The translations under genes and the position numbers were made by a program. 42,404 nt of DNA, taken from a virus. Taxonomy: Duplodnaviria > Caudoviricetes. The stretch spans positions 1 to 42,404 of IMG/VR virus record IMGVR_UViG_3300020045_006171. One strand, written 5' to 3'. Below are positions 3,313-42,043 of the stretch, in pieces (the stretch's first letter is position 1; each line of letters starts with the position of its first letter). The notes below the pieces were generated by a model that saw only the letters and a program-made list of their open reading frames with translations, was not told the origin of the DNA and did no database searches.

Positions 3313-3342
3313 GGAGAACTTTAACCGAGAAAGTGTTATAAA

Positions 3343-9426: not shown

Positions 9427-9427
9427 A

Positions 9428-25958: not shown

Positions 25959-26087
25959 TTACAACGTGCTCAGTGTTATGCTCGTTCCGGTATAAAGCCA
26001 ATAGGTTGACAATTCGCACAGTGTTCGCTATTTTCACGACTGCACTTGACCATACCGTACTGGCATGGCATAACGCTGATGTTGTGC
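25959..26087. repeat. attC-like site A8
   Basis: acaac-gtgct-cagtgttatgc ... gcataacgctg-at-gttgt. Confidence 0.75.
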
Positions 26088-26206
26088 GCTGTAGGCCGCG
26101 CTTCCTTAATGTTCGCCGCGAACTCCTCACAGCCAAGACAAGGGTCGGTCAGCGAACATTTTGTATGCTCATCGTAAGGACATTGATATAGCTTTGTTCT
26201 CGGCAT
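25976..26206 (-). CDS. Cassette gene, Cys-rich hypothetical protein
   Basis: GAAAGGA RBS; reads into attC A8. Confidence 0.6.
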   Translation of the reverse strand: MPRTKLYQCPYDEHTKCSLTDPCLGCEEFAANIKEARPTAHNISVMPCQYGMVKCSRENSEHCANCQPIGFIPERA

Positions 26207-26238
26207 ATTATAAATCCTTTCAAGCGGCCTATTGCAGC

Positions 26239-26349
26239 CAACGTTTACGCAACGTGTGATAGGTGAGCAGCCCACCAACGGCGACATTTGACTGATAAGA
26301 ACCGCAGCTTACAAGGCTGCACATTGCCACAGTTACAGCACTGCGGCTC
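26239..26349. repeat. Truncated attC-like site A7; 111 bp direct repeat of 35822-35932
   Basis: About 5 mismatches versus the 35.8 kb copy; lacks the outer right arm and GTT core. Confidence 0.8.
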
Positions 26350-26469
26350 GGCCGAATACCACTCATTCCATTCATGATTACATTGATCACATTCGATTAT
26401 TTTATGACAATGACCATCTACGGTACTGTGGTGTTTTCTACAATAAATGTCGAACTTAGATTCAGCCAT
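26245..26469 (-). CDS. Cassette gene, Zn-finger-like hypothetical protein
   Basis: CDQC and CCNC motifs; C-terminus nearly identical to that of the 35828-36118 product. Confidence 0.55.
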   Translation of the reverse strand: MAESKFDIYCRKHHSTVDGHCHKIIECDQCNHEWNEWYSAEPQCCNCGNVQPCKLRFLSVKCRRWWAAHLSHVA

Positions 26470-26499
26470 ATTAAAATGCCTTTCGTGTGGCGTTATTGC

Positions 26500-26585
26500 C
26501 TGCAACGGTTGCCGCTTTGTGAAGTGCGGCTATCAAATTCAAAAATCAATAATGTACTCCGCATTTTATAAAGCGGCTGTTGTGC
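26500..26585. repeat. attC-like site A6
   Basis: gcaac-ggtt-gccgctttgtgaagtgcgg ... ccgcattttataaagcggc-t-gttgt; 19 bp stem whose only mismatches are G.T pairs on the + strand. Confidence 0.85.
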
Positions 26586-26601
26586 GAAGTTTGAGCGTGC
26601 T

Positions 26602-26847
26602 TCAACTTTCTTCTGCCGAGCGCTTCCCAAGGCCATTTTTCAACGATTCCAGCCCGTTGCGGGGAAGGAGCTTGAGCGTAACAATGCCTGTGAATGCGTC
26701 AAGATTTAGAATGCGAAACGAACTCCCGCGAACGACCACGGTTTCGCCCATTGTAAATATAGGCACATTCTCTTTTCCAGCGACACCGGTAACTTGATCC
26801 GCTACCTCTTGTGATATGGGGGCGAAACGCCCACGGCCATCGTCCAT
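26602..26847 (-). CDS. Cassette gene, hypothetical protein
   Basis: MDDGRGRF...; GAAGGG RBS; single ORF between two hairpins. Confidence 0.6.
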   Translation of the reverse strand: MDDGRGRFAPISQEVADQVTGVAGKENVPIFTMGETVVVRGSSFRILNLDAFTGIVTLKLLPRNGLESLKNGLGKRSAEES

Positions 26848-26901
26848 TTTAAACCGCCCTTCTTGCGCTCGGACTATCAAACCCAAGCGCGGTTAAATTT
26901 T

Positions 26902-26979
26902 GTACAACGTTTCCGCTGTTATGCTGCCGGTACGCCCACGTGCTGCTTTGCGCCCGGTTGCATAACGGCGGTGTTGTAC
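26902..26979. repeat. attC-like site A5 (near-identical to A2)
   Basis: gtacaac-gttt-ccgctgttatgc ... gcataacggcgg-t-gttgtac. Confidence 0.85.
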
Positions 26980-27001
26980 GAAGTAAAGCCGGGCCTCCAC
27001 A

Positions 27002-27265
27002 TTATTCTTCCGGCGCAAACACAGCCAGTTCGAGGTCGAGGCATTCAATTCCGCTCGATTTATCTTCGAGGCAAATTAACGTGGCGAGACAATTCCTGAG
27101 ATCATCCATTTGATCCCTGATATCACCAGTGCATAATGAATCGCCATGCTTCCGAGAATCGCAAATTGTCTCGCCGTCAGCCTGAATACGACCGTTAAGC
27201 TCATTGACAAGTGAATTGAATGCCTCGACACCCCGCTTGCGAAACGCATCAAAGTCAACTTTCAT
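27002..27265 (-). CDS. Cassette gene, hypothetical protein
   Basis: GGAGG RBS; single ORF between hairpins. Confidence 0.65.
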   Translation of the reverse strand: MKVDFDAFRKRGVEAFNSLVNELNGRIQADGETICDSRKHGDSLCTGDIRDQMDDLRNCLATLICLEDKSSGIECLDLELAVFAPEE

Positions 27266-27322
27266 ACGCTACCCTCCGATTTGTTGCGCCGGACTATCAA
27301 ACCAAAAGCCCGGCTTTATTTT

Positions 27323-27411
27323 GTACAACGGTGCCAAACGGTTGCAGTGCCAACTATCAAATTAAATAATCCTTAATGTAAATTGGCATTGCATACCTTT
27401 GGCTGTTGCCT
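27323..27411. repeat. attC-like site A4
   Basis: acaac-ggt-gccaaa(c)ggttgcagtgccaa ... ttggcattgca(t)acctttggc-t-gttgc. Confidence 0.85.
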
Positions 27412-27476
27412 GTTAGTGCTTGCCGCTTCCTATGTAGTTCTGCGGCTGCGTTACTTCTGCGCCATGGATGGCGCTC

Positions 27477-27860
27477 TTATTCAAGATCAATATTCGGAAC
27501 GATAACGCTTGGTTTAAAAATAACCCGATAGTGTTTGTCACTTACCTTCTTCGGCTCAATTTGCTCACAAAAGTATGTTACATTGTCAGATAGCCCGAGA
27601 TAGTGCTTAAGGTACTCCCCGTTTTCTGTTTTAATTATGACTTCTATTCTTCCATCTTCCAGCGGGGTGACGCTGCAATACGCCCGAACTTCCAATATAT
27701 AATCATTCGTTATCCCGTTATAAAAAACCACACGACGAAAAATTTCAAACTGATGGGCCGCTTGAGAAATGTTGTATGACGCTGTTTCTGTATCTGAACA
27801 CCCATAAAGCCCGAACAACGCAACACAAGCGACAAATGAAAGTAAAATCTTTTTGAACAT
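27477..27860 (-). CDS. Cassette gene, conserved phage lipoprotein
   Basis: Lipobox LYGC after a hydrophobic signal peptide; RRVVFYNGIT and KHYLGLSDNVTYF motifs of a widespread phage lipoprotein family. Confidence 0.75.
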   Translation of the reverse strand: MFKKILLSFVACVALFGLYGCSDTETASYNISQAAHQFEIFRRVVFYNGITNDYILEVRAYCSVTPLEDGRIEVIIKTENGEYLKHYLGLSDNVTYFCEQIEPKKVSDKHYRVIFKPSVIVPNIDLE

Positions 27861-27958
27861 GATACGGCCCCTTCTGTTAAGGTTTTTCTTCCTCGCGCAC
27901 GATGCGCGATTGTTTTGTTTTGCAGCCGCCTATAATACGCTTTTTAGGCAAGCATTAC

Positions 27959-28104
27959 AGGCAACGTCTCGCAAAGGTTGATGCGGTCAAGCCGGAACAA
28001 AGCACTTATTATTTGGATCGCACATCGTTTCGCCTTTACAACTACCATGCGGCATTCCTTCGCATAGGGCAGGCTTGACCGTTTCAACTTTTGGCGTGTT
28101 GGCT
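27959..28104. repeat. attC-like site A3
   Basis: gcaac-gtct-cgcaaaggttgatgcggtcaagcc ... ggcttgaccgtttcaactttt(g)gcg-t-gttgg. Confidence 0.8.
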
Positions 28105-28277
28105 GTCTGTACCGGCACACCCTCAATAGTGTCCTGTCGCGCCAAGTTAAATCCAGCCTCAAACGCGTATCTCGCAGCACATTCAGGAGCACAAAGTACA
28201 TAGCCATAACCATCCTTTATTCTCTGCAACCATTTCTGGAACTCCGTTTCGATAATGCACTGATCTTTGATATCCAT
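27987..28277 (-). CDS. Cassette gene, hypothetical protein
   Basis: GAAAGG RBS; reads about 39 codons into attC A3. Confidence 0.6.
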   Translation of the reverse strand: MDIKDQCIIETEFQKWLQRIKDGYGYVLCAPECAARYAFEAGFNLARQDTIEGVPVQTANTPKVETVKPALCEGMPHGSCKGETMCDPNNKCFVPA

Positions 28278-28319
28278 GAGCGCGACCTTTCAATAATGGT
28301 TTACGTGTGCCGGTATTGC

Positions 28320-28397
28320 AGCCAACGTTTCCGCTGTTATGCTGCCGGTACGCCCACGTACTGATTTGCGCCCGGTTGCATAACGGCGGTGTTGTAT
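28320..28397. repeat. attC-like site A2
   Basis: 28323-28396 matches 26905-26978 with 2 mismatches. Confidence 0.85.
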
Positions 28398-28436
28398 GAT
28401 GAATTGCAAACTTCCATAATGTTCTTTTCGGCCAGC

Positions 28437-28709
28437 CTACTCTATAGTAGCGGCGTTATTTATCGAATCCTTCAAGGCTACAAAATCTGCAACGAACCGA
28501 TCGACACCGGAACAAAGGTTGGTAAATTCCCACGCGCCCTTCAACGACTTCAGCCGAGTAATGCTACCGGCGTAATCTATCGCCGGGATTTTTTGACCGA
28601 TAGAAAGCTCTTTGGGCGCGACCCCGCTTGTTGAACACAAAATGGATTTGACTTCATCGTTCGTTGCAGAAATCAAAACGCCGCCGACTGTTACAGCTAT
28701 AACCTGCAT
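28437..28709 (-). CDS. Cassette gene, hypothetical protein
   Basis: GAAAGGTG RBS; single ORF between hairpins. Confidence 0.65.
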   Translation of the reverse strand: MQVIAVTVGGVLISATNDEVKSILCSTSGVAPKELSIGQKIPAIDYAGSITRLKSLKGAWEFTNLCSGVDRFVADFVALKDSINNAATIE

Positions 28710-28772
28710 AAGAGCACCTTTCGTTTGAGTTAAGAGGCCGAAAAACTATTAAATAAGAGTTTGCAATTTTTC

Positions 28773-28835
28773 ATACAACGTGTGCTCAATGCGTGCTGGC
28801 CGGTTCCTCCGGCCTGCATGCTTGAGCTGTTGTTT
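28773..28835. repeat. attC-like site A1
   Basis: acaac-gtgt-gctcaa(t)gcgtgctggccgg-ttcct-ccggcctgcatgcttgagc-t-gttgt. Confidence 0.85.
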
Positions 28836-29073
28836 GGCTGTAGGTCACGCGCTCCTTGATTTCCAGCGGCGCATGTGCCCACTCGATCTGCTCCCACCCA
28901 AGCCTCGCCGCGTCAGCTAACAACGCAATAAGACTGTTGTCGGGATTAACTTTTGATAATTCACTTTCGATATGTACCCGGATGCGGCGACCAAAATTTA
29001 TAAGAGAACAGTCCATTGTACAGGGTAACGCCACGACTCCCGCCAGTTCATCGATATATGGTTGACCTTGCAT
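28786..29073 (-). CDS. Cassette gene, hypothetical protein
   Basis: GAAAGG upstream; reads into attC A1. Confidence 0.6.
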   Translation of the reverse strand: MQGQPYIDELAGVVALPCTMDCSLINFGRRIRVHIESELSKVNPDNSLIALLADAARLGWEQIEWAHAPLEIKERVTYSQTTAQACRPEEPASTH

Positions 29074-29116
29074 AACTGTTGCGCCGCCTTTCAATGGTCG
29101 CGTGACCTATTGCAAA

Positions 29117-29152
29117 CAACTATCTGTTAACCTTCCCGTTTGTTCGCTTAAT
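29117..29152 (-). other. Second attI-like site heading array A
   Basis: 32/36 identity to 36467-36502; non-palindromic; ends at the GTT of the first cassette. Confidence 0.75.
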
Positions 29153-29411
29153 TTCCATTATCTCTGTCCGTTCCCCGATTTCCTTGAACACTCGGCAACG
29201 ATACGCGAACCGCAGCTTCCCGCGCCCTTCTCCCGACCTCGGGAAGCGTCTGCTGAATCCGCTCATCTTTCTGGTCTTCTCTGATCGTTTTGCAGCTCGG
29301 GCACTCATCGCGCCTGTCGCGTGCGCATGAGAAAAGACGGGTGTGCAGCTTTCGACATGGACAGCCCTTGAACGGGCAGCCAATGGACTTGGGGCAAATT
29401 GATTTACTCAT
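29148..29411 (-). CDS. Cys-rich hypothetical protein
   Basis: Overlap-coupled to the ASCH-like gene; stop codon lies inside the attI-like site. Confidence 0.45.
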   Translation of the reverse strand: MSKSICPKSIGCPFKGCPCRKLHTRLFSCARDRRDECPSCKTIREDQKDERIQQTLPEVGRRAREAAVRVSLPSVQGNRGTDRDNGN

Positions 29412-29949
29412 TCGGCATTCTCCTGAATTGAATGACCCAGACGTAGGGGTTCGCAGCCCACGACCCGACCCTGTTGATGGATTCCCAAAGAGTCATATAA
29501 CTTATTTTTGGTGATGTACTCCATGCGCACACAGACCGGTAATCCCGGTAGCAGCCATTTAACATTTCAATCCCCTCTGCAATACAATCTTCCTCCGAAA
29601 TATCCTGCAGACTCTCCACCCTGACCGCGACCACCTCAAGCGTGATACGGGACGCCCAGCGCGGCATGAAGATCGACGGCGTTTTCCGGGGCGTGAGAGG
29701 CATGTCGGTAGCGCAATAGTGGACATGATCCGTTACCCCATCAATCCAGCATGACTCCCGGACCCATAGACGATCACCTACTTTACCATACGGGCAGACA
29801 GCATCGGTCACACAAGCATCTGCTCCGCTTTCCATTCTCACAAGATGTATAACGGATTCTCTTTTGTATATCCTGCGGGTCTGCGTCTTTCTGCCTTCCA
29901 GGATGGCGCGCACCATCGGAGCACTCATTAGTATTGGTTTTTCACGCAC
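29404..29949 (-). CDS. ASCH/PUA-like phage protein
   Basis: PMVRAILEGRKTQTRR, GDRLWVRE, PSIFMPRWASRITLEV and W.ANPYVWVI.F motifs. Confidence 0.85.
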   Translation of the reverse strand: MREKPILMSAPMVRAILEGRKTQTRRIYKRESVIHLVRMESGADACVTDAVCPYGKVGDRLWVRESCWIDGVTDHVHYCATDMPLTPRKTPSIFMPRWASRITLEVVAVRVESLQDISEEDCIAEGIEMLNGCYRDYRSVCAWSTSPKISYMTLWESINRVGSWAANPYVWVIQFRRMPNE

Positions 29950-29981
29950 AGGAATCCCCCATAATAGGACGCTCTTTAATT

Positions 29982-30194
29982 TTACCCGTTGCCATGCTCC
30001 CTCGAATCTGTAACAAGTTGGTATAGTTCAAACGCCTCGTTGTCAAGCGTAAAACCGAGCTTATTTATCAGCCAGTCAACATATGCGGAGTCCTCGTTGA
30101 TCACCGTTCTAAGCGTCGCGTTCTTGTATCGCCCGAAAGAGAATATTTCATTGAGACCGATCTCGCGAATGTTGTCTGAATAAATTACTGACAT
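29982..30194 (-). CDS. Small protein, exonuclease X C-terminal / DUF3820-like
   Basis: FGRYKN...D..YVDWL motif. Confidence 0.6.
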   Translation of the reverse strand: MSVIYSDNIREIGLNEIFSFGRYKNATLRTVINEDSAYVDWLINKLGFTLDNEAFELYQLVTDSREHGNG

Positions 30195-30206
30195 AATGTG
30201 CCTTTC

Positions 30207-30374
30207 TTATTCCCCGTGATAATCCGATCCGCTCCAAGGAGGGAACTCTTCGTCCTTCCGTTTCGCCCTGCGCGCCATCATGTCGGCGGCGACAAAGCAC
30301 ACGATGAAAAAGATTGCTATTGCCGCTGTTCCGATGGCCGGGTGGGATTGGTAAAGATCGATGATGTATTTCAT
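30207..30374 (-). CDS. Small membrane protein
   Basis: 55 aa (MKYIIDLY...) with one hydrophobic helix; ATGA overlap with the upstream gene. Confidence 0.5.
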   Translation of the reverse strand: MKYIIDLYQSHPAIGTAAIAIFFIVCFVAADMMARRAKRKDEEFPPWSGSDYHGE

Positions 30375-30622
30375 GCTGCCACTGCCTCAGGTTCAATTTT
30401 GAGATAATACCTTTTGTGCGTTCCTTCGCCGAACTTGTTTTTCTCAACGTCCTCGCCGAAAATATATCCTTCCCGGCGAAGTTCTGAAAGACGTTTTCTA
30501 AGTTCCGTGCCCATTCCCATGTCGCAACATTCGCCCACCGACAACCCAGCGCGCGGGTAATTCCGCAGATATGCAAGTATCGCCTGGTTCTGCGGCTTGT
30601 GAGACAACGGTGTTTTGTTCAT
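30371..30622 (-). CDS. Winged-helix DNA-binding protein
   Basis: QNQAILAYL, LRKRLSELRREGY and KRYYL motifs; GGAGG RBS. Confidence 0.7.
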   Translation of the reverse strand: MNKTPLSHKPQNQAILAYLRNYPRAGLSVGECCDMGMGTELRKRLSELRREGYIFGEDVEKNKFGEGTHKRYYLKIEPEAVAA

Positions 30623-30815
30623 GTGCCTCCAGTGCCTTTCGATGATTTTCAATCGCCTTGATATTGTCGCGGATTAAATTCATGGTCTTCCGGTAACATC
30701 CGGCGCCCATTGTTCCGCGCTTTATCGGACGGTGACAGACGCAGCACCGGCCACTCTTCGACGGTTTCGTCGGGACGTGCCCGAACAGGTCGGTCTGCTC
30801 AACCTTGACCTTCAC
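30498..30815 (-). CDS. Hypothetical Zn-finger protein
   Basis: GTG start overlapping the ATPase stop; CCVC...GMGAGC-type motif. Confidence 0.45.
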   Translation of the reverse strand: MKVKVEQTDLFGHVPTKPSKSGRCCVCHRPIKRGTMGAGCYRKTMNLIRDNIKAIENHRKALEAHEQNTVVSQAAEPGDTCISAELPARWVVGGRMLRHGNGHGT

Positions 30816-32083
30816 AGGAGCACCACCTTGTCGTCGTATGATTCGACCTTCTGGCATTCCCGGAGCAGGACCACGTTTTCCTTATCCGATTTCTTTCCCA
30901 CTTCCGCACAAATTACTTGGAACCCGGCGGCGAGAAGTTCGTCAACAATCTTCGCCTGGTTGTCGTCATCGAGCGCCTCGAAATCGTCGATGAACCGAAC
31001 CTTGAGGTCAGGGTTGATCGAAGCGTGAAGCCGTGCGACAATCAACTCCTGCTCGCCTTTGGAGAAGTACGGTTCTTTTATCGGCCGGCCGTTGAGAAGG
31101 AGACCGCCGGATTCGTCAACCGAAAGACCGTCGAACCCGAACTTGTGCTCGGCTATGCGGTCGATACGGTTCTGCGCCACCGTCTCAAGCTGGTCGCGAT
31201 TCTTTTTGATCTCGTCTGCCTTCGCTTCGGCACGCGCCTTTTTGTCGATGTACTGGCGGTACGCTTCGGCTTTGCGGTTCGTCTCCTCGGTCCCGTGTAT
31301 GGCGTCGATGATCTCCGTAGTAGATTTCAGCGGCTCAGGCCGCGGCAATCCTTCAAGCGCATCATTCGCCTTCCCGATCTGGTCTTCGACCGCCGCAGCC
31401 TGTTGTAAAATCCTGAAGTGTTCCTCGGTCTTGTCAGCGATGTATTTCTCATGCCGGGTAATTTCTGCCGCCCGATCGTTCTGCTCGACATTGAACCGGT
31501 CGATGTCTTCTTTCTGGTGCATCAGATCCGATATGTTGGCTTTCTCGACCGGGGCAACCTCGACCACCGGGCCGATGGTCTTCAATTCCCTGTTCAAAAG
31601 CGTGAACTCCTGCTTGATCTTCTGGATCTCGGCGTCGATATCGGAAACGTCGATCCCGAGAAGAACAGCCTGGTCCTTGCTGCTCATGGCGCAGAAATTT
31701 TTCGCGGACATGAACGCCACCGAAAGAAGCCCGTTCAACCACTCCTGATTTACCAGGTATCCGGCAGGGGGATGGAATACAATCTCGTTCGACGCCGCGG
31801 TGATGTGGTTCGTAACCTTGACTTCAACATTCTTCGCCTCGTCGAGCAAGGTAAGTTCAATATCCGCGCTCTTGCGGTTCGGGCCAATGAACCGGAACCG
31901 CTCGCCGATTACTCCGTTCCCGCGCTCAGCAATGCCCTTTAAAGCCGCCCATATCCCGGTCAGGCCGACCGACGTTTTCCCGCTTCCGTTGACCCCTACG
32001 AGTCGGGTTACTGATCCGGCGAACTCGCACTCGAAGTCAGTGAAGCGGCCGAAGTTTTTGAGCTTGAGAGATTTGATTTTCAT
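30812..32083 (-). CDS. SMC/SbcC-like AAA ATPase
   Basis: MKIKSLKLKNF, Walker A GVNGSGKT, coiled coil, FSKGE signature and Walker B FIDDFEALD. Confidence 0.85.
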   Translation of the reverse strand: MKIKSLKLKNFGRFTDFECEFAGSVTRLVGVNGSGKTSVGLTGIWAALKGIAERGNGVIGERFRFIGPNRKSADIELTLLDEAKNVEVKVTNHITAASNEIVFHPPAGYLVNQEWLNGLLSVAFMSAKNFCAMSSKDQAVLLGIDVSDIDAEIQKIKQEFTLLNRELKTIGPVVEVAPVEKANISDLMHQKEDIDRFNVEQNDRAAEITRHEKYIADKTEEHFRILQQAAAVEDQIGKANDALEGLPRPEPLKSTTEIIDAIHGTEETNRKAEAYRQYIDKKARAEAKADEIKKNRDQLETVAQNRIDRIAEHKFGFDGLSVDESGGLLLNGRPIKEPYFSKGEQELIVARLHASINPDLKVRFIDDFEALDDDNQAKIVDELLAAGFQVICAEVGKKSDKENVVLLRECQKVESYDDKVVLL

Positions 32084-32340
32084 TGTATTGATTCCTTTTT
32101 ATGTGTTTGATTATCGAAAAAAGTTATGTTCGTTTCCGGGTCACAAAATGCCTTTGAATCCTCATAGGCAATTTCGACCGATTTAATTGAATTTTCATCA
32201 ATAGACAGTTGTTTCATTGTTTACCAAAGAAAAAGAGAGAATAAACAAGTAACCAGAAAAAAGAAGAGGGAAAAAGAAAAGTCCCCTGACGGAAAATAAA
32301 CCGCTCTAACGCCTTTAACATCGGGGTTTGCCGGGAAAAG

Positions 32341-32436
32341 AAAAAGGGCCGTCCCTTGATCTGTCCTCTGACTCCGTGGTGCTAGACACAGAGAAGAGGT
32401 GAAGGAACAGCCCTTTTTCTCCCATGCTAGCACACA
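32341..32436 (-). promoter_or_regulatory. Structured non-coding element (hairpin with loop complementary to an upstream 7-mer)
   Basis: Minus strand: GTGCTAG upstream; stem AAAAAGGGCTGTTCCTT/AAGGGACGGCCCTTTTT; loop TCTAGCAC. Confidence 0.5.
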
Positions 32437-32493
32437 TGGAATAAACTTATCTTGTAAAAGAACGCGGTTGCCTTGGAGAGCCCGCACGATTAA

Positions 32494-32522
32494 AATATAA
32501 AGTGATTTCATAAAAAAGTCAA
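32494..32522 (-). promoter_or_regulatory. Sigma70-like promoter
   Basis: TTGACT-N17-TATATT. Confidence 0.65.
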
Positions 32523-32534
32523 TACCTTTGTTTA

Positions 32535-32581
32535 AAAACCCCCGCCACCGTTACCCCATCGTCACCAGGCAGCGGGGTTCA
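32535..32581 (-). terminator. Rho-independent terminator after the SSAP gene
   Basis: AACCCCGCTGCC...GGTGGCGGGGGTT stem followed by a T run on the minus strand. Confidence 0.55.
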
Positions 32582-32592
32582 TGCTTCGATCT

Positions 32593-33555
32593 TCAGTACG
32601 CGAGCGGAGGCTTTCCGTCTTTGTCGAGCTGCGGTTCATCATCATGGCCCGGTTCACGCGGTGGCTTGTTCGCGTCGAGCTTGGCCTTTGCCCCGGCAAC
32701 ACCTTTTTTCTGATCGCCGGGCTTCGTCTCGTCCTGGACCTGGCCCTTGTCGATCACGTCGCGCCAGGACAGTTCGCCGTCTTTGATTGCCTGGAATATC
32801 CCGCGAAGGTCGGCCAGTTCCTTCGGTGTCAGAACGTCGGCAGGGTGCGCCAGATAAACCGCGATGTCGGCCGCGCTCACCCCGATACCGGCGAAGGCGT
32901 CGAGCATCTTCCGTTTTGCCGCGTCGGGGTCAACCGCGTCCTGCTTGTTCTGCGTTTCGATCACGATCTCCATACATTCGTCGATGATGTCGGCCGGGAT
33001 CAGCCGAAGCCCGAGCGTGCGGATCGCCTTCGATACGAGCGCGTTCTGCTTGTTCAGGATGTCGTCATCGGTCGCCGGGAGAATGTACAACATAGCATTC
33101 TGCGAATTGAGACGTGTCTTCAACGGCTGCTCACCGGGCTTCAGCGACTTCCGCTCGACCGTTTTCGTCACGGTCACATCCTGGTTGTAGGATACGTTTT
33201 CCTCAACATCCATACACTTGACATTGATAATCCGGCGCTCTTCGTCGTCGAAAACCGTCTGCGTCATCACCACCACATTGCGGTAAAGCCTGATGCACGC
33301 CTCGGCGAACCGGATCGACGGACCGGTGATACCTTTGCCGATGGGTTTATTGTACCGCGCAATGGCGGCAAACGACGGCCGGCGGCACTCTTTCAGAAGG
33401 CTCTGGCGGGTCTGCTCAATGTCACGCGGGCGACGCAGAGCCAGCTCGTAATGCGAGAAGACCAGCGCCTTCGCCTGTTCCGCGACGGCAATCGCCGCGG
33501 TCTGCGTCGGGTTGATCTGCAATGCGTTTTTGTTGGTATCGTTTTCGAGGTTCAT
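32593..33555 (-). CDS. Putative single-strand annealing protein (recombinase partner of YqaJ)
   Basis: Directly downstream of the YqaJ gene; RPRD, ITGPSIRFAE, SKAIR and AIKDGE motifs; charged low-complexity tail. Confidence 0.6.
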   Translation of the reverse strand: MNLENDTNKNALQINPTQTAAIAVAEQAKALVFSHYELALRRPRDIEQTRQSLLKECRRPSFAAIARYNKPIGKGITGPSIRFAEACIRLYRNVVVMTQTVFDDEERRIINVKCMDVEENVSYNQDVTVTKTVERKSLKPGEQPLKTRLNSQNAMLYILPATDDDILNKQNALVSKAIRTLGLRLIPADIIDECMEIVIETQNKQDAVDPDAAKRKMLDAFAGIGVSAADIAVYLAHPADVLTPKELADLRGIFQAIKDGELSWRDVIDKGQVQDETKPGDQKKGVAGAKAKLDANKPPREPGHDDEPQLDKDGKPPLAY

Positions 33556-33557
33556 GG

Positions 33558-34523
33558 CTATTCCTTTTCGGGGTAACACCGTAATGAGGAGGTCGGTTCG
33601 CCGATCTTCGTGTTCGCCGCGATGATTGAATTTATAATATCTGCGGGAACTTGCGATTTCAGCGACTCGACAACCCCCTTATAACTCGTGCTCTCGCGCC
33701 CGGCCGAACGTGTGATTGTCAGCTTTCCAAGCCCGTCAATCTTCACGCCGCCGAACTCGCCGACTTCTGAAATGATGATATTGGTCAACTCTTCCTTTTT
33801 CGCCTCGATGAACTTTGCCGCTTTTTGGAGTTTAAAGTATCTCACCGCGTTGCTGCAAAGTACCTCGGACGGATTCGGAACAATCGCCTTTGATCCTTTC
33901 TTGTAGAGGGTTGAAAAATATTCCCGGCACGCGACCGAACCGTCAGTCTGCGGAGGGGTTTTATCGGTGACCAGTTTCCAGAACTCGCGCGCCCGGTCAA
34001 AAAGCTGTTTAAAAAACGACTCGTCGAACGCGATGTTGTAAATTCTGAAGTCAGACGCGGCAATCAAAACCGCAAGGTGTGTCATCCGCTGCCCGGCGAC
34101 ACCCATCTGCCAGGTCACCTGCGTGAGGTAGTAATCCGGGATCTGATCGGTGCCAGGATCGCCCCACGCATGGCCGGAACGCGCCGTTTTGATCTCGACG
34201 TTGATCTGGCCGTCTTCGGAGACGTAATCCTGGGTACAGCCAGCCGGGACACCTTCAAAGTCTTTGCGGATGAACTCGGCCTTTACGACCTTGATGCCGT
34301 ACTGCTCGGTGTACGCCGCGGCAATCACCGGTTCAAGCCTGTTTCCCCACGACATGGCATCGTTGACCGCATCGGGCGGGATCGTGTCGCGCGTCTTATC
34401 CATCCAGCAGTCAAACGCCGACCGGTACGGGGACAGCCCGCAAATGGCAGCGATATCCGTGGCCGTCACCACCTGTTTCCGTTTCAAAAACCATTCGCCG
34501 CGGTCGCTCAATTTATACCTCAT
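33558..34523 (-). CDS. YqaJ-like viral recombinase / lambda exonuclease family
   Basis: W...RK..VTATDIAAICGLSPY, WGNRLEP, EIKT and YYLTQV.WQM.V motifs. Confidence 0.9.
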   Translation of the reverse strand: MRYKLSDRGEWFLKRKQVVTATDIAAICGLSPYRSAFDCWMDKTRDTIPPDAVNDAMSWGNRLEPVIAAAYTEQYGIKVVKAEFIRKDFEGVPAGCTQDYVSEDGQINVEIKTARSGHAWGDPGTDQIPDYYLTQVTWQMGVAGQRMTHLAVLIAASDFRIYNIAFDESFFKQLFDRAREFWKLVTDKTPPQTDGSVACREYFSTLYKKGSKAIVPNPSEVLCSNAVRYFKLQKAAKFIEAKKEELTNIIISEVGEFGGVKIDGLGKLTITRSAGRESTSYKGVVESLKSQVPADIINSIIAANTKIGEPTSSLRCYPEKE

Positions 34524-34540
34524 TTTTAGTGGTCAATTTA

Positions 34541-34570
34541 AATATAACAATATTTTTGTATAAATGCAAG
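34541..34570 (-). promoter_or_regulatory. Early promoter
   Basis: CTTGCAT-N17-TATATT. Confidence 0.7.
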
Positions 34571-34596
34571 AAAATTGTTTTTATTGAGGTATTATT

Positions 34597-34851
34597 TTAA
34601 AAAAACTTCCTGTACCAGGGGGTGGACGACATTGTCTCCATGACCTCATCGGGAATGCCCTTGAAATACTTGTTGTGCGGGCAAGCGGTGAAAAATGTGG
34701 TGCGGGTTGCTGCGAGTTCATTGTTCAGTTTTTTAATCTGATCCCGGTACGCTTCCCCAGCCGTGAGCGAAAACTCCAGGGCGTTGAGCGCCCGTTCTTT
34801 TGCGATGTACTCCGGCCCTTTGACGCCGAAAAATTCAAGGATTCTTTTCAT
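34597..34851 (-). CDS. Hypothetical protein
   Basis: AAGGAGAG RBS. Confidence 0.6.
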   Translation of the reverse strand: MKRILEFFGVKGPEYIAKERALNALEFSLTAGEAYRDQIKKLNNELAATRTTFFTACPHNKYFKGIPDEVMETMSSTPWYRKFF

Positions 34852-34895
34852 TGACTCTCCTTATAAAAGTTAGCGACCGTGCAAGACCCAAACCT

Positions 34896-35150
34896 CTAAC
34901 CCACTCGGTCGCTTGCCGGTGTTTCCGGCGATTGTTTCGGTTGTAAACAGTTCTGTTTATCATAAACCACTATGTCAGCACAAGATTCCAATTTAAATAA
35001 AATTATAATTATTGGAATAGCAGGACCGAACAATCCGGCGACAGCAGAGATAATTAAATCACCAACCGTTATCCTTTGAACACAGGAATATCCGTGCAAA
35101 AGAAAGGATATCGAGCCAATTAAAAACCATGCGATTATTGCGATTGTCAT
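34896..35150 (-). CDS. Small membrane protein
   Basis: Two hydrophobic helices; ATGA overlap. Confidence 0.6.
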   Translation of the reverse strand: MTIAIIAWFLIGSISFLLHGYSCVQRITVGDLIISAVAGLFGPAIPIIIILFKLESCADIVVYDKQNCLQPKQSPETPASDRVG

Positions 35151-35419
35151 TTTACCATCTCCTTCAACAGGCAGCGAACCCGAGCCGCGGTCATTAGTTT
35201 TCCAGCATCGTTGCAGTGTATTGAGACTTCTTGTGCGTGCCGAAAAGAATCTGCAACATATGCGGGTGCTGCCAGTGTGAATTTAGCGGCATGAATTGCA
35301 GAAACGGACGCAGCTCCCATCGCAGCGACCGCCGCGCATTTTGCATCTCCAATCGCCATTCCCAGGCGGAAAGCCTTGCGAGCGCTTATCAGTTTTCTAC
35401 GGCGTTTTTCTTTTCCCAT
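35147..35419 (-). CDS. Hypothetical protein
   Basis: Start MGKEK just after the core of attC B3. Confidence 0.5.
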   Translation of the reverse strand: MGKEKRRRKLISARKAFRLGMAIGDAKCAAVAAMGAASVSAIHAAKFTLAAPAYVADSFRHAQEVSIHCNDAGKLMTAARVRCLLKEMVK

Positions 35420-35777
35420 TTTTACCTTTTGTATAACGTTCGCCAAATGTTTGTATGTCAAGCCGAAAATAATCCTTACAGCCAGTTTTACAACGAGATT
35501 TAACACACCGATTACTACGGAAATGCTTGCAATCCAGCCACGGCTTGATTACAAACTTTGGCTGTTGTTTGTCAGTTGGCTCGGCTGATACCTTAATGTG
35601 ATCGGCGCTCTTTTGATCTACCACTGAGGCTATTTCGCGCAATGCTTCGGCGGTAAAGTTCTGCCGTGGAAAAATCTCTGGCTCAAAGCGCCATTCCCCA
35701 TTTTCAAGGCGTACTATGCCTATTTCACCGCCATTACCGCCGATAAGCCTGAACCAAGTTTCCCGTGTGATTACCAT
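35397..35777 (-). CDS. Cassette gene, hypothetical protein
   Basis: AGGA RBS; reads entirely through attC B3. Confidence 0.55.
   Translation of the reverse strand: MVITRETWFRLIGGNGGEIGIVRLENGEWRFEPEIFPRQNFTAEALREIASVVDQKSADHIKVSAEPTDKQQPKFVIKPWLDCKHFRSNRCVKSRCKTGCKDYFRLDIQTFGERYTKGKNGKRKTP
35431..35570. repeat. attC-like site B3
   Basis: ataac-gttc-gccaaa(t)gtttgta(t)gtcaagccg ... cggcttgattacaaactttggc-t-gttgt. Confidence 0.8.
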
Positions 35778-35818
35778 AGCGCCGATCCTATAAAATGTTT
35801 TTCAGCCGAGACTATTGC

Positions 35819-35957
35819 CTGCAACGTTTACGCAACTGGTGATAGGTGAGCCGCCCACCAACGGCGACATTTGACTGATAAGAACCGAAGTTTACAAGGC
35901 TGCACATTGCCACAGTTACAGCACTGCGGCTCACTTTCATACCTTGCGTTGTTGCCT
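35819..35957. repeat. attC-like site B2
   Basis: gcaac-gttt-acgcaa..ggtgataggtgagccgc ... gcggctcactttcataccttgcgt-t-gttgc. Confidence 0.8.
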
Positions 35958-36118
35958 GTCTGTACTGCGGGCGCTCCTCGCGTTTTCGCGGCGCGGCGAA
36001 AATGCACAGTTATGTGGCGTCCGCACGAACAAACACTTTTACCGTTGGCGTTATTGTTACCGACCATTAAAACCGTTGATCTTATTCCGCACATACACTC
36101 AATGTTTATTTCACGCAC
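35828..36118 (-). CDS. Cassette gene, Cys-rich hypothetical protein
   Basis: Likely GTG start with GAAAGG; reads into attC B2. Confidence 0.55.
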   Translation of the reverse strand: MREINIECMCGIRSTVLMVGNNNANGKSVCSCGRHITVHFRRAAKTRGAPAVQTGNNARYESEPQCCNCGNVQPCKLRFLSVKCRRWWAAHLSPVA

Positions 36119-36158
36119 TTTCGCGCAGCCTTTCAAATTCAACCGCCCGCAGTATTGC

Positions 36159-36319
36159 GCCCAACGTCTGGCTATGCCTGAAGTTGCCGCCGAATATATT
36201 CATACGTATCGGTGACTAATTTGTATTCTGAATCCTCTGGATCAAACATGAACCGACCAGAAAAAAGGTGCGAATATACTGCTTCAATCGGCGGCAATTT
36301 TGGGCTAGCCTTGTTGGTG
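36159..36319. repeat. attC-like site B1
   Basis: ccaac-gtct-ggcta(t)gcctgaagttgccgccga ... tcggcggcaattttgggctagcc-tt-gttgg. Confidence 0.8.
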
Positions 36320-36426
36320 GATGTATATTTTTCCACCTTATCTTCAAGAGCGGCCATTCTCTGATCTAAACAGTCACAAATATTGGCAACATAGTATGGA
36401 TCAGAAAAGTCTATTTCTCTCGTCAT
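36172..36426 (-). CDS. Cassette gene, hypothetical protein
   Basis: AGGAG RBS; about half of the ORF lies inside attC B1. Confidence 0.6.
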   Translation of the reverse strand: MTREIDFSDPYYVANICDCLDQRMAALEDKVEKYTSTNKASPKLPPIEAVYSHLFSGRFMFDPEDSEYKLVTDTYEYIRRQLQA

Positions 36427-36466
36427 GGCCGCTCCTATCAAACCGTGTTTAAAAATTTATTTCCAC

Positions 36467-36502
36467 CAACTCTCTGTTAACCTACCCCCTTGTTCGCTTA
36501 AT
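36467..36502 (-). other. Primary attI-like site
   Basis: Minus strand ATTAAGCGAACAAGGGGGTAGGTTAACAGAGAGTTG, between the integrase stop and the first cassette. Confidence 0.75.
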
Positions 36503-36513
36503 CTTCCTCTGTA

Positions 36514-37341
36514 CTACATCATTCCGCTTATCGGACTGACAACCTTACCGATCGTCGCATTCGATACATGGGTATAAATTTCCGTGGTCTTGGTGCTCGA
36601 ATGCCCGAGCAACTTCTGGATAATCCTGATATCGTTTCCGGCCTCGTGCAAGTGCGTCGCATACGAGTGCCGCAACTTGTGAATCGACCGATATTTCACG
36701 CCCGCCCTGTCGCACGCGTGCCAAAGAATCATCTGCGCGGTCCGCTTCGTGATATTCCCGCCGAATTGACCACCGAACAAAAAGTCTTCTGGCTGTTTGC
36801 CTGTCGTTATCATCCTGGCCATATCACCGATACTTTTATCCACCGGAACGATCCGGTCTTTCTGTCCCTTTCCTCGAATCCGCAACATAGTAAAATCGCT
36901 ATAAAAATCACCGGCTTTCAGATTCACGATCTCAGAAACCCGCAAGCCACACCCGTACCCTATGGCGATTAAAAGACGGTGCTTTATATTTTCCGTGCCT
37001 TTTAGAATCGCCGAAACTTCTTCCCTGTCGAAAATCTGAGGAAGTGCTTTCGGCTCCTTCTGACGCGGGACTATATCGGTCTGAACCGAAACCCCGAGGA
37101 CCGCCGAACAGAAAAAACGGATCGCCGCCAGTTCAAGATTCACACCCTTCGGTGAACGCTTCCGGAACTTCAGCGCAATCGAATAATCCTTGATGTGATC
37201 CACGATATCTCGGTGTTCACGGTCATGCAGGAAAGAGAAAAATGAGCGCAAGGCAATAGAATAGTTTTTCACCGTCGCTGGTGAATAATTCCGCAACTGC
37301 AGCTCCTTGACCAGGAGTTCCATTGCTTCTGCCGATTTCAT
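36514..37341 (-). CDS. Tyrosine recombinase, integron-integrase-like (SAM-like N-terminus) but lacking the IntI-specific insertion
   Basis: LRNYSPATVKNY N-terminus, K.LPQI; catalytic GLRVSE, GKGQKDR, HKLRHSYATHL and LLGH...TTEIYTHVS; TAATG-coupled start. Confidence 0.9.
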   Translation of the reverse strand: MKSAEAMELLVKELQLRNYSPATVKNYSIALRSFFSFLHDREHRDIVDHIKDYSIALKFRKRSPKGVNLELAAIRFFCSAVLGVSVQTDIVPRQKEPKALPQIFDREEVSAILKGTENIKHRLLIAIGYGCGLRVSEIVNLKAGDFYSDFTMLRIRGKGQKDRIVPVDKSIGDMARMITTGKQPEDFLFGGQFGGNITKRTAQMILWHACDRAGVKYRSIHKLRHSYATHLHEAGNDIRIIQKLLGHSSTKTTEIYTHVSNATIGKVVSPISGMM

Positions 37342-37595
37342 TACTTCTTTCTCCACACCAGCAGAGCCCCGTCCTTGTACTGCGTGACGATCTTAACCTT
37401 GTACAGCGACGCCGACGAAAACAAACCGCCGCGCAGGTTGTAAACCGTGTCTTCGTTTACCGGGACAATGGCCCCGTCCATTTCAAACTCCGTGTACTCA
37501 CGGCATTCCCCGACCTTCATTTCGTGGAGATAGTATTTCTCGGGTCTCCCCTTGGTGGTATTTTTCGGAATAGGTTTTTTTGATATTTTGTACAT
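37341..37595 (-). CDS. Small basic protein (DNA-binding-like), translationally coupled to the integrase
   Basis: GGAGG RBS; KPIP..GRPEKY.L.EM.VGE...VWR motif. Confidence 0.65.
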   Translation of the reverse strand: MYKISKKPIPKNTTKGRPEKYYLHEMKVGECREYTEFEMDGAIVPVNEDTVYNLRGGLFSSASLYKVKIVTQYKDGALLVWRKK

Positions 37596-37614
37596 TGATT
37601 TTCCTCCTTGCATT

Positions 37615-37644
37615 AATATAGCAATATTTTTATAAAAGTGCAAG
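37615..37644 (-). promoter_or_regulatory. Early promoter upstream of the integrase operon
   Basis: CTTGCAC-N17-TATATT. Confidence 0.7.
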
Positions 37645-37646
37645 GT

Positions 37647-37913
37647 TTATTTTCCGTATCGCGCTTCCCCGAAAAGAATCTTCGGCATGCCGTGGCTGAG
37701 TTTCTTGGAAATCCTGGGCCGCTCGAATATTTTACCAGCCCATTCGTCGCGCTTGATTTCGGCGTCTCCTATCCGTTTCCCGCGGGAGTTGTGCAACGGG
37801 AACGTAAACTTCGGGTGCCCGGTGATTGTGAAAGAGTTGCCGCGCGCCTTGCCCGTAATCAGATCGAAGCATTCCGGTATTTCATCGTCCTTCAAAAACT
37901 TTTTAAGCGTCAT
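37647..37913 (-). CDS. Hypothetical protein
   Basis: GGTGGTG upstream; co-directional with neighbours. Confidence 0.55.
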   Translation of the reverse strand: MTLKKFLKDDEIPECFDLITGKARGNSFTITGHPKFTFPLHNSRGKRIGDAEIKRDEWAGKIFERPRISKKLSHGMPKILFGEARYGK

Positions 37914-38058
37914 CGTATCACCACCGCTGAGACAAGGTAAACGGCCAGGGCGACCACCAGCAGGACCACGATCCCGATCACAACGTGTTCAGCGTACGCC
38001 TGTGGGGATCGACGCCGATAAAATTTCTTATCCTCGTTGAAAAGATATGTTGGCATAA

Positions 38059-38304
38059 TCACACCCCTATACATCTTTTTATTTTTAACTGGTTTTTTAT
38101 CGCTTCATACCGTTCCCGGTGTCTAGCGCGGATCGTCACGTCGTTTTTGTTATACCAATCGGCGGAGCAGCACGCATCGGAACAGTACCGCTTATCAGGG
38201 CGGGTTGCCGTAAAAATTCGCTTGCACCTGTAGTAATCGCACGCTCTGACGATTTCTATACCGCCATGCCAAGCGCCAGTGGGATAGTATTTATAGGCCA
38301 TCAT
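38059..38304 (-). CDS. Zn-finger protein
   Basis: CDYYRC...F.......YCSDAC motif. Confidence 0.6.
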   Translation of the reverse strand: MMAYKYYPTGAWHGGIEIVRACDYYRCKRIFTATRPDKRYCSDACCSADWYNKNDVTIRARHRERYEAIKNQLKIKRCIGV

Positions 38305-38591
38305 TCCCCGTTCGGTCCGTTGTCGGCCAGGTGATTAAAAATTTTGTCGATTAATTTTTCTTTGGCTTCACCTGATAGATAGTTTGAAATTTCTATTTTG
38401 ACATTTTTACCAGCAATGTCAACGGTTGATAAAATTGCGCTTTCAATTTCGATTTCAGGGTCATCGTCGGGCTCTATGGGGGCCCCTGTGCTGTCGCGAG
38501 CCCCACGGCACGCGGGATATGAGCGATACTCTACCATGATCTCCACGTCGCTCAGATCGACCGTGGTGGTGGTTTTACGACGCACTGACAT
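38301..38591 (-). CDS. Hypothetical phage protein
   Basis: GGAGG RBS; GARD..G.P.EPD..PEIEI motif. Confidence 0.6.
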   Translation of the reverse strand: MSVRRKTTTTVDLSDVEIMVEYRSYPACRGARDSTGAPIEPDDDPEIEIESAILSTVDIAGKNVKIEISNYLSGEAKEKLIDKIFNHLADNGPNGE

Positions 38592-38820
38592 CAGCGGCCT
38601 CCTGTTTTTCCATCCGCTCCATGCGGGAGATAGTGCCGTCAATGCAGTGGTCAATTGTTTCGAGCGACACCAATCCTGCCAATAATGTTTTGAGGGTCGC
38701 GCTGCAAAAACCGGCAAATCCGGAGTAACTGTTGCCGTCTCGTTTGTAAAACAGCGCGGCGAGGCGGTCAATTTTAGCGTCAATCTCCACGGTGCCGATG
38801 GCGAGGCTATTTTTTGTCAT
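38575..38820 (-). CDS. Hypothetical protein
   Basis: ATGA overlap with the upstream gene. Confidence 0.55.
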   Translation of the reverse strand: MTKNSLAIGTVEIDAKIDRLAALFYKRDGNSYSGFAGFCSATLKTLLAGLVSLETIDHCIDGTISRMERMEKQEAADVSAS

Positions 38821-39044
38821 ATGATCCCCGCTTGCTGCATAAACCAAAATTGATTGTACCGGGTCAGAGTGCGCTCTGTGATATGAGTGAGCATGGTTCG
38901 CAACTCATCGGCGCTGCGGTCGTCGTTGGTCACATTGACGATCTCCGGCAGGTTCTGGCCGATCTGCATCCCGGCCATGAGTTCACGGATGCGGGCGGAC
39001 TTCTGCTCAAGTGTCGCGCGGACTGATTGGGGAAGATGGTTCAT
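38817..39044 (-). CDS. Hypothetical protein
   Basis: GAGGAG RBS. Confidence 0.55.
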   Translation of the reverse strand: MNHLPQSVRATLEQKSARIRELMAGMQIGQNLPEIVNVTNDDRSADELRTMLTHITERTLTRYNQFWFMQQAGII

Positions 39045-39122
39045 AACGCTCCTCGGTGGTTTGGTGGTTAAGTGGCGGGATAAAACCGGCCCCACAGGCG
39101 GGCCGGAACCCCACCACAGGGA

Positions 39123-39338
39123 TTATGAGTACATCCAAGCACTTATTGTTCCGTCCTGTGCGCTATACCCCTCCCGAGCCTCATTGCGGTACTCGGGTGT
39201 GCGTAGCATGTGCCATGCGTCGATAGTCTGCATCGTGTCATGTAGATGCTTTTTTACTTGACCCCGTGTAACAATTTTGGTTGCGCCTGACCATGGATTT
39301 GTAATTGTTATCTGGTCGCTGTTTTTTGTCTTGCTCAT
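39123..39338 (-). CDS. Hypothetical protein
   Basis: GAGGAGG RBS downstream of a promoter. Confidence 0.6.
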   Translation of the reverse strand: MSKTKNSDQITITNPWSGATKIVTRGQVKKHLHDTMQTIDAWHMLRTPEYRNEAREGYSAQDGTISAWMYS

Positions 39339-39378
39339 AACTGCCTCCTCTGTGGTGGTGGTTTTGCTTGCCTTTAAT

Positions 39379-39408
39379 AATATACTACTTTTTTTACAAT
39401 AATGCAAG
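39379..39408 (-). promoter_or_regulatory. Early promoter
   Basis: CTTGCAT-N17-TATATT. Confidence 0.7.
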
Positions 39409-39476
39409 AAAAATATAATAATAATTAAAATATTTGTATGTAGTTTAAAATTATGGCGTTATAAAAACATAATTTT

Positions 39477-40457
39477 CTATAAAACGCCGTTTGTTTCGTC
39501 AAATGTCATTGAAAGCTGATCTGATTCCGGATTGTCACGCGCAATTTCAATGTTTTTTACAGCCTGCCGATAATATGATTGCTTCAGTTCAACACCTATC
39601 CCGATCCGGTCTGTTTTCACTGCGCAATAGACCTCTGACCCCACTCCCATAAACGGGGTGAAAACTATTTCGCCGGGGTTGGAGCGGAGAGTTATAGCGC
39701 GATAAATAATATCAAGCTGAAGCGGGTGAACGTGCTTTTCATCTTCGGGGTCTTTGCAATCCATGAACGGCAGAACATTGCTCATGCGAATATCGTCCCA
39801 AATTGATGAAGCATACCGCCTCCAAATAATATGCGAGTACTTATTCAATTTCTGGTCGCCTGTCCATCCGCGATACTGAAGAAGATCCGGGGGTATCGGG
39901 GCTTCTCCATAGTAAATATCAAGACCGGTCGGATGCTGAATCGGTATTTTGTTTTCGCCTTTTTTGCGAAACACCAAAAGCTGATCCATCGTAGCGACAC
40001 CGCCATAGGCGGCATCATCAATAATGGTTCGATGAGAGAGGTTATGGGTCATGGTCCTTCGACGAACCCAGAGCGGCTCTTTCCATATCGCATGCCTTGC
40101 AATCAAGTCAAAGCCGCATTTTTTATGCAGCCGAACAATGTCGCCTGGAAAATCAGTCAGGTAATCTTTCCCGTTGTTGCTCGATGGAATGTCACAGCAG
40201 TGAACCGCTGAAATACGACCGGGCAAAGTAATTCTGTTTAATTCCTTCACACAATATTCATAATGCTCAAAAAAATCTGCGTAGTTGTCGTTGTTGGAAA
40301 GATCGCGGTCATCACTCGAATAGTGATAGAGCCCACCGAACGGCGGTGAATAAATTGACATGTGTATTTTATCTGCCGGAAGCGATTGCATAACTTCGAT
40401 GCAGTCAGAATTGTAAAGCGCGTACTTGTTTGTAATTACCTGGTCTATTACAGCCAT
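39477..40457 (-). CDS. DNA methyltransferase (N4-C/N6-A, beta class)
   Basis: YSPPF motif IV before FTPFMGVGSE motif I; HVHPLQLD and GVELK motifs. Confidence 0.9.
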   Translation of the reverse strand: MAVIDQVITNKYALYNSDCIEVMQSLPADKIHMSIYSPPFGGLYHYSSDDRDLSNNDNYADFFEHYEYCVKELNRITLPGRISAVHCCDIPSSNNGKDYLTDFPGDIVRLHKKCGFDLIARHAIWKEPLWVRRRTMTHNLSHRTIIDDAAYGGVATMDQLLVFRKKGENKIPIQHPTGLDIYYGEAPIPPDLLQYRGWTGDQKLNKYSHIIWRRYASSIWDDIRMSNVLPFMDCKDPEDEKHVHPLQLDIIYRAITLRSNPGEIVFTPFMGVGSEVYCAVKTDRIGIGVELKQSYYRQAVKNIEIARDNPESDQLSMTFDETNGVL

Positions 40458-41972: not shown

Positions 41973-41979
41973 GGTTTTA

Positions 41980-42009
41980 AATATAACAAAAATTTATTAT
42001 AATTGCAAG
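41980..42009 (-). promoter_or_regulatory. Leftward promoter of a divergent pair
   Basis: CTTGCAA-N17-TATATT. Confidence 0.7.
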
Positions 42010-42043
42010 ATAAATAAGTTATCACGGTCATTTATTTTAATCA

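Follow-up and report, generated by a model that had tools for sequence, protein, structure and literature searches.

A phage-borne, integron-like gene-cassette system with a tyrosine recombinase that lacks the I2 insertion

Introduction

Integrons pair a recombinase gene (intI), lying beside a simple, non-palindromic site (attI), with co-oriented single-gene cassettes whose attC sites have AAC/GTT cores and fold as hairpins on the bottom strand. Here we analyse a viral DNA of 42,404 nucleotides (Duplodnaviria; Caudoviricetes; IMG/VR record IMGVR_UViG_3300020045_006171, our genome G000; hereafter the window) that has a comparable layout in its early region, but whose recombinase, unlike those of class 1 integrons and the Vibrio cholerae enzyme VchIntIA (structure 2a3v), lacks the I2 insertion.

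In the reverse integron of Treponema denticola the integrase points into the array, as it does in the window, and complementarity between the start of a cassette and its own end is used as a cassette test for integrons (PMC4909258). Canonical attC sites carry a pair of extrahelical bases, and the I2 helix of the integrase contacts one of the two (PMC3053210). This helix is credited with enabling single-strand cassette recombination, with intermediates described as missing (PMC7790495). An insertion in the I2 region is not fully conserved in an 'integron-like subgroup', and the accessible text of that paper describes no cassette function for the insertion-less members (PMC8138268).

In phages, a survey of 10,705 genomes with IntI and attC models found three complete integrons, one In0 and 17 clusters of attC sites lacking an integron integrase (CALINs) (Qi et al. 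2023, PMC9892861), so the statement in the original prediction for this DNA, that phages rarely or never carry integrons, should be put less strongly. The complete phage integrons have a bona fide bacterial-type IntI, in contrast to the window; one of them, in Shewanella prophage M16-3, is accompanied by another array that has an attI to itself (PMC9892861), as is found here. Six phage sites were tested with IntI1, which recombined all but one, P12002L_attC1, and the accessible part of the article describes neither a non-IntI phage recombinase nor an alternative site geometry (PMC9892861). Our own search, with subscription literature mostly outside it, found no published account of I2-less cassette systems, whether phage or bacterial. 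Phage integrons and CALINs as such are already published; what appears to be new, in the literature searched, is the I2-less type.

Results

Two head sites and eleven hairpin-bounded units

The recombinase gene and the site ending in GTT next to it, both part of the original prediction, are borne out by two Pfam domain matches and by the layout of the site, which begins (at 36502) 12 bp past the recombinase stop codon and whose GTT opens array 1 (coordinates of all features are given in Table 1). Eleven units, all in - orientation, form two arrays, three in array 1 and eight in array 2. Ten of them end in complete AAC...GTT hairpins of 55–153 nt (63–161 nt with 4-nt flanks) and one in half a hairpin, as originally described. 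A strict motif-plus-stem scan of the window recovered 7 sites, all within the arrays and on one strand, compared with a mean of 0.02 and a maximum of 1 in 100 Markov-shuffled windows; a first, loose scan, with 97 mostly chance candidates on the - strand, served only for listing sites. The motif GTT-R-N3-[GTA][CA]-AA-[TA] occurs ten times on the - strand of the window, always at the start of a unit, and four times, scattered, on the + strand. Folding z-scores were at or below -2.4 for 8 of the 10 bottom strands, the remaining two being weak (-1.6 and -1.2), and in 9 of 10 hairpins the bottom strand folds more stably than the top. An Rfam search gave nothing meaningful (a single match, E 0.8).

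Where a single attI-like site had been predicted, there are two: site 1 stands, and array 2 is headed by a second that is 84% identical to it over 45 nt and lies 7,350 bp downstream. The window contains just these two copies, so that, in a further departure from integrons, two heads accompany a single enzyme. They are direct repeats flanking core genes, differ at one spacer base and have a two-arm layout that we take to be dif-like. The flank of the GTT of site 1 matches the left arm of the first cassette, its own, over 9 nt. We also considered the inverted reading, with the + strand as top strand, and ruled it out: both heads have a common conserved upstream box and no hairpin. A plain resolvase role for the recombinase seems disfavoured as well, because efficient recombination between the heads would delete the core genes lying between them. 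Nor do the arrays fit the description of a CALIN, since the recombinase heads array 1 and array 2, 7.35 kb away, has a head of its own; the description does apply to related arrays from 15 further viral records.

Cassette starts are complementary to their own ends

If a circle enters at G^TT, the bases that follow GTT at the start of a cassette should be complementary to those that precede AAC at its own end. Over the 4 nt past GTT, six of the ten cassettes showed this match (p 1.5e-5). Further out, with the first 10 nt omitted, the cassette's own end was the best match for all ten starts, nine of them strictly, a score reached by none of 200,000 permutations (p<5e-6). This outer stem is about 15–25 nt long, which is long in comparison with integrons, and modelling gave the circle junction a more stable fold than the array junction for all ten cassettes (mean difference -11.1 kcal/mol). 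The same signal appeared in a wider set of 15 viral-locus arrays (14 found by pattern search, plus locus L001 described below, with duplicates removed), where 57 of 117 adjacent pairs matched over 4 nt against 15.9 expected from within-locus permutation (maximum 31 in 5,000 permutations). As a control, the two flanks of a single hairpin matched in only 10 of 134. We conclude that the units are almost certainly real cassettes and that, as read from the sequence, each spans G^TT to G^TT with terminal inverted repeats.

Cassettes resembling those of the window also occur in other orders elsewhere. Two sediment runs, X1 and X2, held 8% and 5% of words; the phage is not present whole in them, and the contigs come from other genomes. 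Five contig breaks lay close to a crossover G, at 36470 (0 nt), 26910 (2 nt), 25962 (3 nt), 27333 (4 nt) and 26512 (6 nt). A contig from X2 matches the start of A1c1 exactly up to 36470, where a hairpin arm ending in C-GTT replaces the head site, and in the same run the A2c8 hairpin that closes array 2 is followed by another cassette start at 25962. In X1, a 284-nt match to A2c6 with 16 differences stops at 26910 and continues into a different hairpin arm (the 35-nt loose end was assigned to this record by its length), and an A1c2-like start is joined to the A2c8 hairpin, where it matches its own left arm perfectly. Finally, loci L001 and L231 have a 196-nt stretch in common that starts 1 nt ahead of the G in both. 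Being from other organisms, these contigs demonstrate modularity, not a reaction.

The recombinase and the hairpins depart from IntI and attC

The predicted enzyme has all the catalytic residues (R134, K158, H221, R224, H247 and Y256), each at least 90% conserved across its clade. Its residues 172–203 align across 174–248 of VchIntIA, leaving it about 43 residues short there, and none of the 21 aligned clade members has an insertion that fills the I2 gap. It matches the integron integrase model TIGR02249 in two pieces and, with 157 bits, stays below the cut-off of 265. An AlphaFold model (pLDDT, the predicted local distance difference test, 86) had as its top structure matches an archaeal Xer (4a8e, the best) and VchIntIA. 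Xer-type recombinases (archaeal XerA 4a8e/5hxy; NF040815) resemble the enzyme in size, two-domain build and fold, but it scores below the NF040815 cut-off (193.7 bits against 220), its site has a 7-bp spacer, and it is tied to hairpin-bounded cassettes. Aligned in this way the recombinase lacks I2, and it is thus not an IntI in the strict sense.

About 20 relatives are known at 47–81% identity, three of them on contigs of 43.8–48.6 kb. Among cultured phages there was no close relative, the best match being 34% identical. A search for related loci with the protein itself returned nothing, and one based on the alignment, with generic motifs, returned full-length relatives of at most 38% identity. 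A clade-specific pattern search gave 35 viral hits, for which the tblastn hits listed contained no match, and other clade-specific patterns gave zero matches apart from one genome that matched an 11-residue motif alone.

The hairpins differ from classical attC in a consistent way. In each of the ten, the left side reads AACA and the right side CGTT; the bottom strand accordingly has a G-T pair where the top strand has an A-C mismatch. Beside the core, three nucleotides bulge out of the R' arm in eight of ten (one other site has 2 nt and one an internal loop), with stem beyond. Such 3-nt bulges were also seen at 104 of 134 sites in other arrays, a predominance partly built into the search pattern and scoring, and the cultured Polaribacter phage P12002L has sites of this type. 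The wobble and bulge thus stand in place of the spacer and extrahelical bases of attC, and the left core is CAAC rather than TAAC. The window hairpins do not have the classical attC fold, whereas R'' (..AAC) and R' (GTT..) fold together on the bottom strand at all 10 complete sites. Of the predicted integron layout, the cassettes, the G^TT crossover and the co-oriented recombinase at the head hold up, and the assignment to strict IntI and strict attC does not. By all available sequence tests the system is integron-like, yet it departs from integrons in two defining features, I2 and classical attC geometry.

Enzyme and sites recur together in other genomes

A second case is an unrelated provirus (G016, locus L001). 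The enzyme encoded there is 37% identical to that of the window, its stop codon adjoins an attI-like site, and 7 of 7 cassettes are self-complementary; an eighth motif match falls inside a gene. The provirus enzyme clusters with the clade of the window recombinase in a quick tree of 77 rows (support 100 in the Shimodaira-Hasegawa-like approximate likelihood ratio test, SH-aLRT; long branch), and the replication module of the provirus differs from that of the window, having a family A polymerase. In a bacterial chromosome (G218), the order is again an I2-less relative, then an attI-like site, then a self-matching cassette of the same fold.

We also surveyed loci with at least 800 bp of downstream sequence for a hairpin on the same strand within 1.5 kb, ranking the enzymes by family-profile bits. 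A hairpin was found downstream of 8 of 35 strong matches (at least 205 bits, including the window), 2 of 11 intermediate ones (including L001) and 0 of 109 weak ones. Taken together, 10 of 46 close relatives (at least 170 bits) have one on the same strand, and no surveyed locus has one downstream on the other strand. In 301 genomes of the phylum of genome G017, the hairpin pattern gave 16 matches in 14 genomes against 12 in the control, which is near chance, and of four pattern-matching genomes examined further only G218 proved real. Pedobacter belongs to the phylum Bacteroidota.

Several observations concern the contents of these loci. In L001, the cassette at 12220–12912 has a weak match to a C5 DNA methylase (PF00145, E 6.5e-4, below the cut-off), and two further cassettes have identical starts and ends around different open reading frames (ORFs). 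On contig C35 of G218 (locus L310, 5200–12000) there is a chromosomal toxin-antitoxin-like cassette array of the same site family, with TAAC replacing CAAC. Three large phage records (L199, L240 and L262, in G001, G009 and G013) carry arrays of 15–18 sites and have no tyrosine recombinase match. P12002L (L335, NC_028924) has, at 30008–40946, several more such sites than the two tested in PMC9892861, and its annotated genes there, several of them methyltransferases, lie on the strand opposite to the sites.

Weighing the explanations

Taking gene order, heads and cassettes together, we think that the adjacent I2-less tyrosine recombinase probably works both arrays, as part of a phage-borne cassette platform. 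How it might do so is more tentative. The enzyme would bind the double-stranded attI-like site and recombine it at G^TT with a cassette circle, acting on the circle's bottom strand in its folded form. Such a circle would take the shape of a rod, in which the AAC/GTT core separates an inner stem, the hairpin, from an outer one made by the start-end pairing. Strand choice would depend on the invariant G-T wobble and on the 3-nt bulge by the core, which would replace the contact between I2 and an extrahelical base, and the outer stem, which could form on the circle only, would favour insertion over excision. Cleavage would fall at the AAC/GTT core of a single-stranded substrate and be followed by replicative resolution, with one enzyme gene serving both heads and their arrays. 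More broadly, it is a plausible conjecture, which we would put at somewhat less than an even chance, that a phage-specialised I2-less clade recombines folded single-stranded circles independently of the I2 helix, with bulge and wobble choosing the strand and the outer stem the direction, and that enzyme-carrying phages and host relatives drive a pool of cassettes shared in trans with enzyme-less phages.

A number of observations weigh against this reading. I2 is regarded as necessary for cassette capture (PMC7790495). Among the 46 close relatives, 36 have no hairpin within 1.5 kb, and inside the recombinase clade the link between gene and array rests on two phages. Fifteen of the 16 array-bearing viral records, four of them complete (48–254 kb), have no PF00589 or family match, and P12002L has no family-profile match; several of the enzyme-less viral records nevertheless have attI-like heads. 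The existence of such phages suggests that arrays are often served in trans. G218 additionally carries a broken IntI fragment. Within the window, the bases adjacent to GTT mismatch in four of ten cassettes, one of them as a wobble, and in A1c2, A1c3 and A2c8 the bases directly after GTTG mismatch though the outer stem matches, which the proposed mechanism leaves unexplained. The last ~110 nt of A2c7 are 93% identical to the interior of the A1c2 hairpin, and the point of fusion is not at a GTT. As for the predicted breakpoints at G^TT in related contigs, five did fall within 0–6 nt of the G, but most of the loose ends listed lie elsewhere: only 1 of 12 and 4 of 12 were within 6 nt of a crossover G (among 12 listed of 199 and 12 listed of 42), and others fell on left arms, in the interior of hairpins or within core genes.

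The enzyme-less records would be expected if the cassettes are real but a host enzyme acts on them in trans, be it an I2-less relative on the chromosome, an IntI or a Xer, while the phage enzyme has another role, such as inserting the phage at a dif-like site of the host or resolving dimers at the attI-like site. Array 2 has no adjoining enzyme, 38 of 121 genomes of the phylum of G017 carry a family member at E<=1e-55, the best structure match is the archaeal Xer, and the provirus G016 has a single PF00589 match and no PF00239 match, all of which would fit such a division of labour. Against it stand the distance from gene end to array head (12 bp in the window, a few bp in L001), the position of the G016 gene in mid-genome (36.5 of 47.6 kb), and the recurrence of the strand-specific order of gene, site and cassette in bacteria. 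P12002L_attC1, the sole site on which IntI1 failed (PMC9892861), scores as the 3-nt-bulge type (n=1), which also counts against this explanation. On balance we find this explanation unlikely, while giving it real weight.

Two further explanations were considered. The units might be shuffled by homologous or micro-homology recombination at short repeats, through a RecE-like exonuclease and its neighbour, or be non-autonomous elements that end in inverted repeats, with a regulatory role for the hairpins. A YqaJ/RecE-like exonuclease gene does lie between the two arrays, the A2c7 fusion lies inside a hairpin, hairpin families are reused, and several loose ends are at left arms or within hairpins; but adjacent sites have few bases in common, no target duplication was seen, and the complementarity of starts to their own ends in the wider set, the attI-like heads and the fixed wobble and bulge would all be left unexplained, making this account very improbable. 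We give scarcely any credence to the idea that the arrays are a frozen fragment of a host integron-like array, captured once and decaying: the site family does occur in the chromosomal toxin-antitoxin array and one unit is damaged, whereas two separate heads stand amid core phage genes, the catalytic residues are intact in an enzyme that forms a clade with another phage enzyme, the cargo includes a phage-like family (phrog_478), and single cassettes are found in other orders elsewhere.

If an I2-independent route exists, it would add a second chemistry to that of known integrons and offer a living model of a pre-I2 ancestor, and it would give phages a dedicated means of loading and reordering early accessory genes. 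A 275-residue enzyme and sites of ~60 nt render the claim that I2 is necessary directly testable. Screens based on IntI and attC may under-detect such arrays.

Cassette cargo

Table 1. Features of the predicted cassette system (nucleotide positions in the window)
Feature	Position	Strand	Details
Tyrosine recombinase, 275 aa	36514..37341	-	PF00589 and PF13495 matches; without the IntI I2 insertion
attI-like site 1	36458..36502	-	TAA-C-N5-G-TT, 7-bp spacer, conserved upstream box; inferred crossover after G at 36470
A1c1	36165..36469	-	ORF 36172-36426 (84 aa) entering hairpin 36163-36315
A1c2	35825..36164	-	ORF ~35828-36118 entering hairpin 35823-35953
A1c3, end of array 1	35437..35824	-	ORF 35397-35777 through entire hairpin 35435-35566
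attI-like site 2, heads array 2	29108..29152	-	Similarity to site 1; no adjoining recombinase gene; inferred crossover after G at 29120
A2c1	28779..29119	-	ORF 28786-29073 entering hairpin 28777-28831
A2c2	28326..28778	-	ORF 28437-28709; hairpin 28324-28393
A2c3	27965..28325	-	ORF 27987-28277 entering hairpin 27963-28100
A2c4	27329..27964	-	ORF 27477-27860 (PF25682 / phrog_478); hairpin 27327-27407, 2-nt bulge
A2c5	26908..27328	-	ORF 27002-27265; hairpin 26906-26975, 96% identical to A2c2 hairpin
A2c6	26506..26907	-	ORF 26602-26847; hairpin 26504-26581
A2c7, unit without left arm	26242..26505	-	ORF 26245-26466; half hairpin, right side only
A2c8, end of array 2	25965..26241	-	ORF 25976-26206 entering hairpin 25963-26083

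Each ORF had been described as followed by a hairpin. The hairpin is present, but 6 of 10 ORFs run into or through their own, a difference from integron cassettes; in the wider set, 47 of 65 self-matched units do likewise. They can do so because the left core, being CAAC, supplies no stop codon. The in-frame openness of the hairpins (0.79 against 0.61) is biased by the choice of the longest ORF, and we do not use it as evidence. A 121-nt segment that is 93% identical between 26229–26349 and 35812–35932 places the same hairpin-encoded C-terminus of about 35 residues on two different small ORFs.

No Pfam or PHROG family was matched by 10 of the 11 cassette ORFs, and none of the 11 had a PADLOC or NCBIfam match; Atlas look-ups of two cargo proteins returned hypothetical clusters only. 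The one assigned product, that of A2c4, bears the label of a recombination directionality factor, which a lipoprotein-like signal at its start makes doubtful. The predicted cargo thus consists of small early accessory genes, mostly without an assigned function.

Genome setting

The window is the entire virus record, which is linear and has an estimated completeness of 71% (CheckV). Virion-type genes, as recognised by reading, are on the + strand, and the early region, with helicase, DNA methylase, RecE-like exonuclease and ATPase genes, is on the - strand. There were no sigma-70-like sites in 36300–38000, where 1.9 would be expected by chance, although the sigma-70 consensus may not be that of the host; transcription of the cassettes by read-through from the early operon is possible. 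An AT-rich 38-nt repeat occurs in four copies (34537–34574, 37611–37648, 39375–39412 and 41976–42013), each upstream of a group of - strand genes, and these resemble early promoters.

Between the head and tail genes, at 2653–13725, several ORFs look from their translations like glycosyltransferases, a sugar aminotransferase and radical-SAM (S-adenosylmethionine) enzymes, and are possibly for glycosylation of the virion or of DNA. The second half of a 604-residue ORF (17967–19781) resembles by eye a 325-residue, tail-tube-like ORF (14202–15179), a possible duplication of a tail domain.

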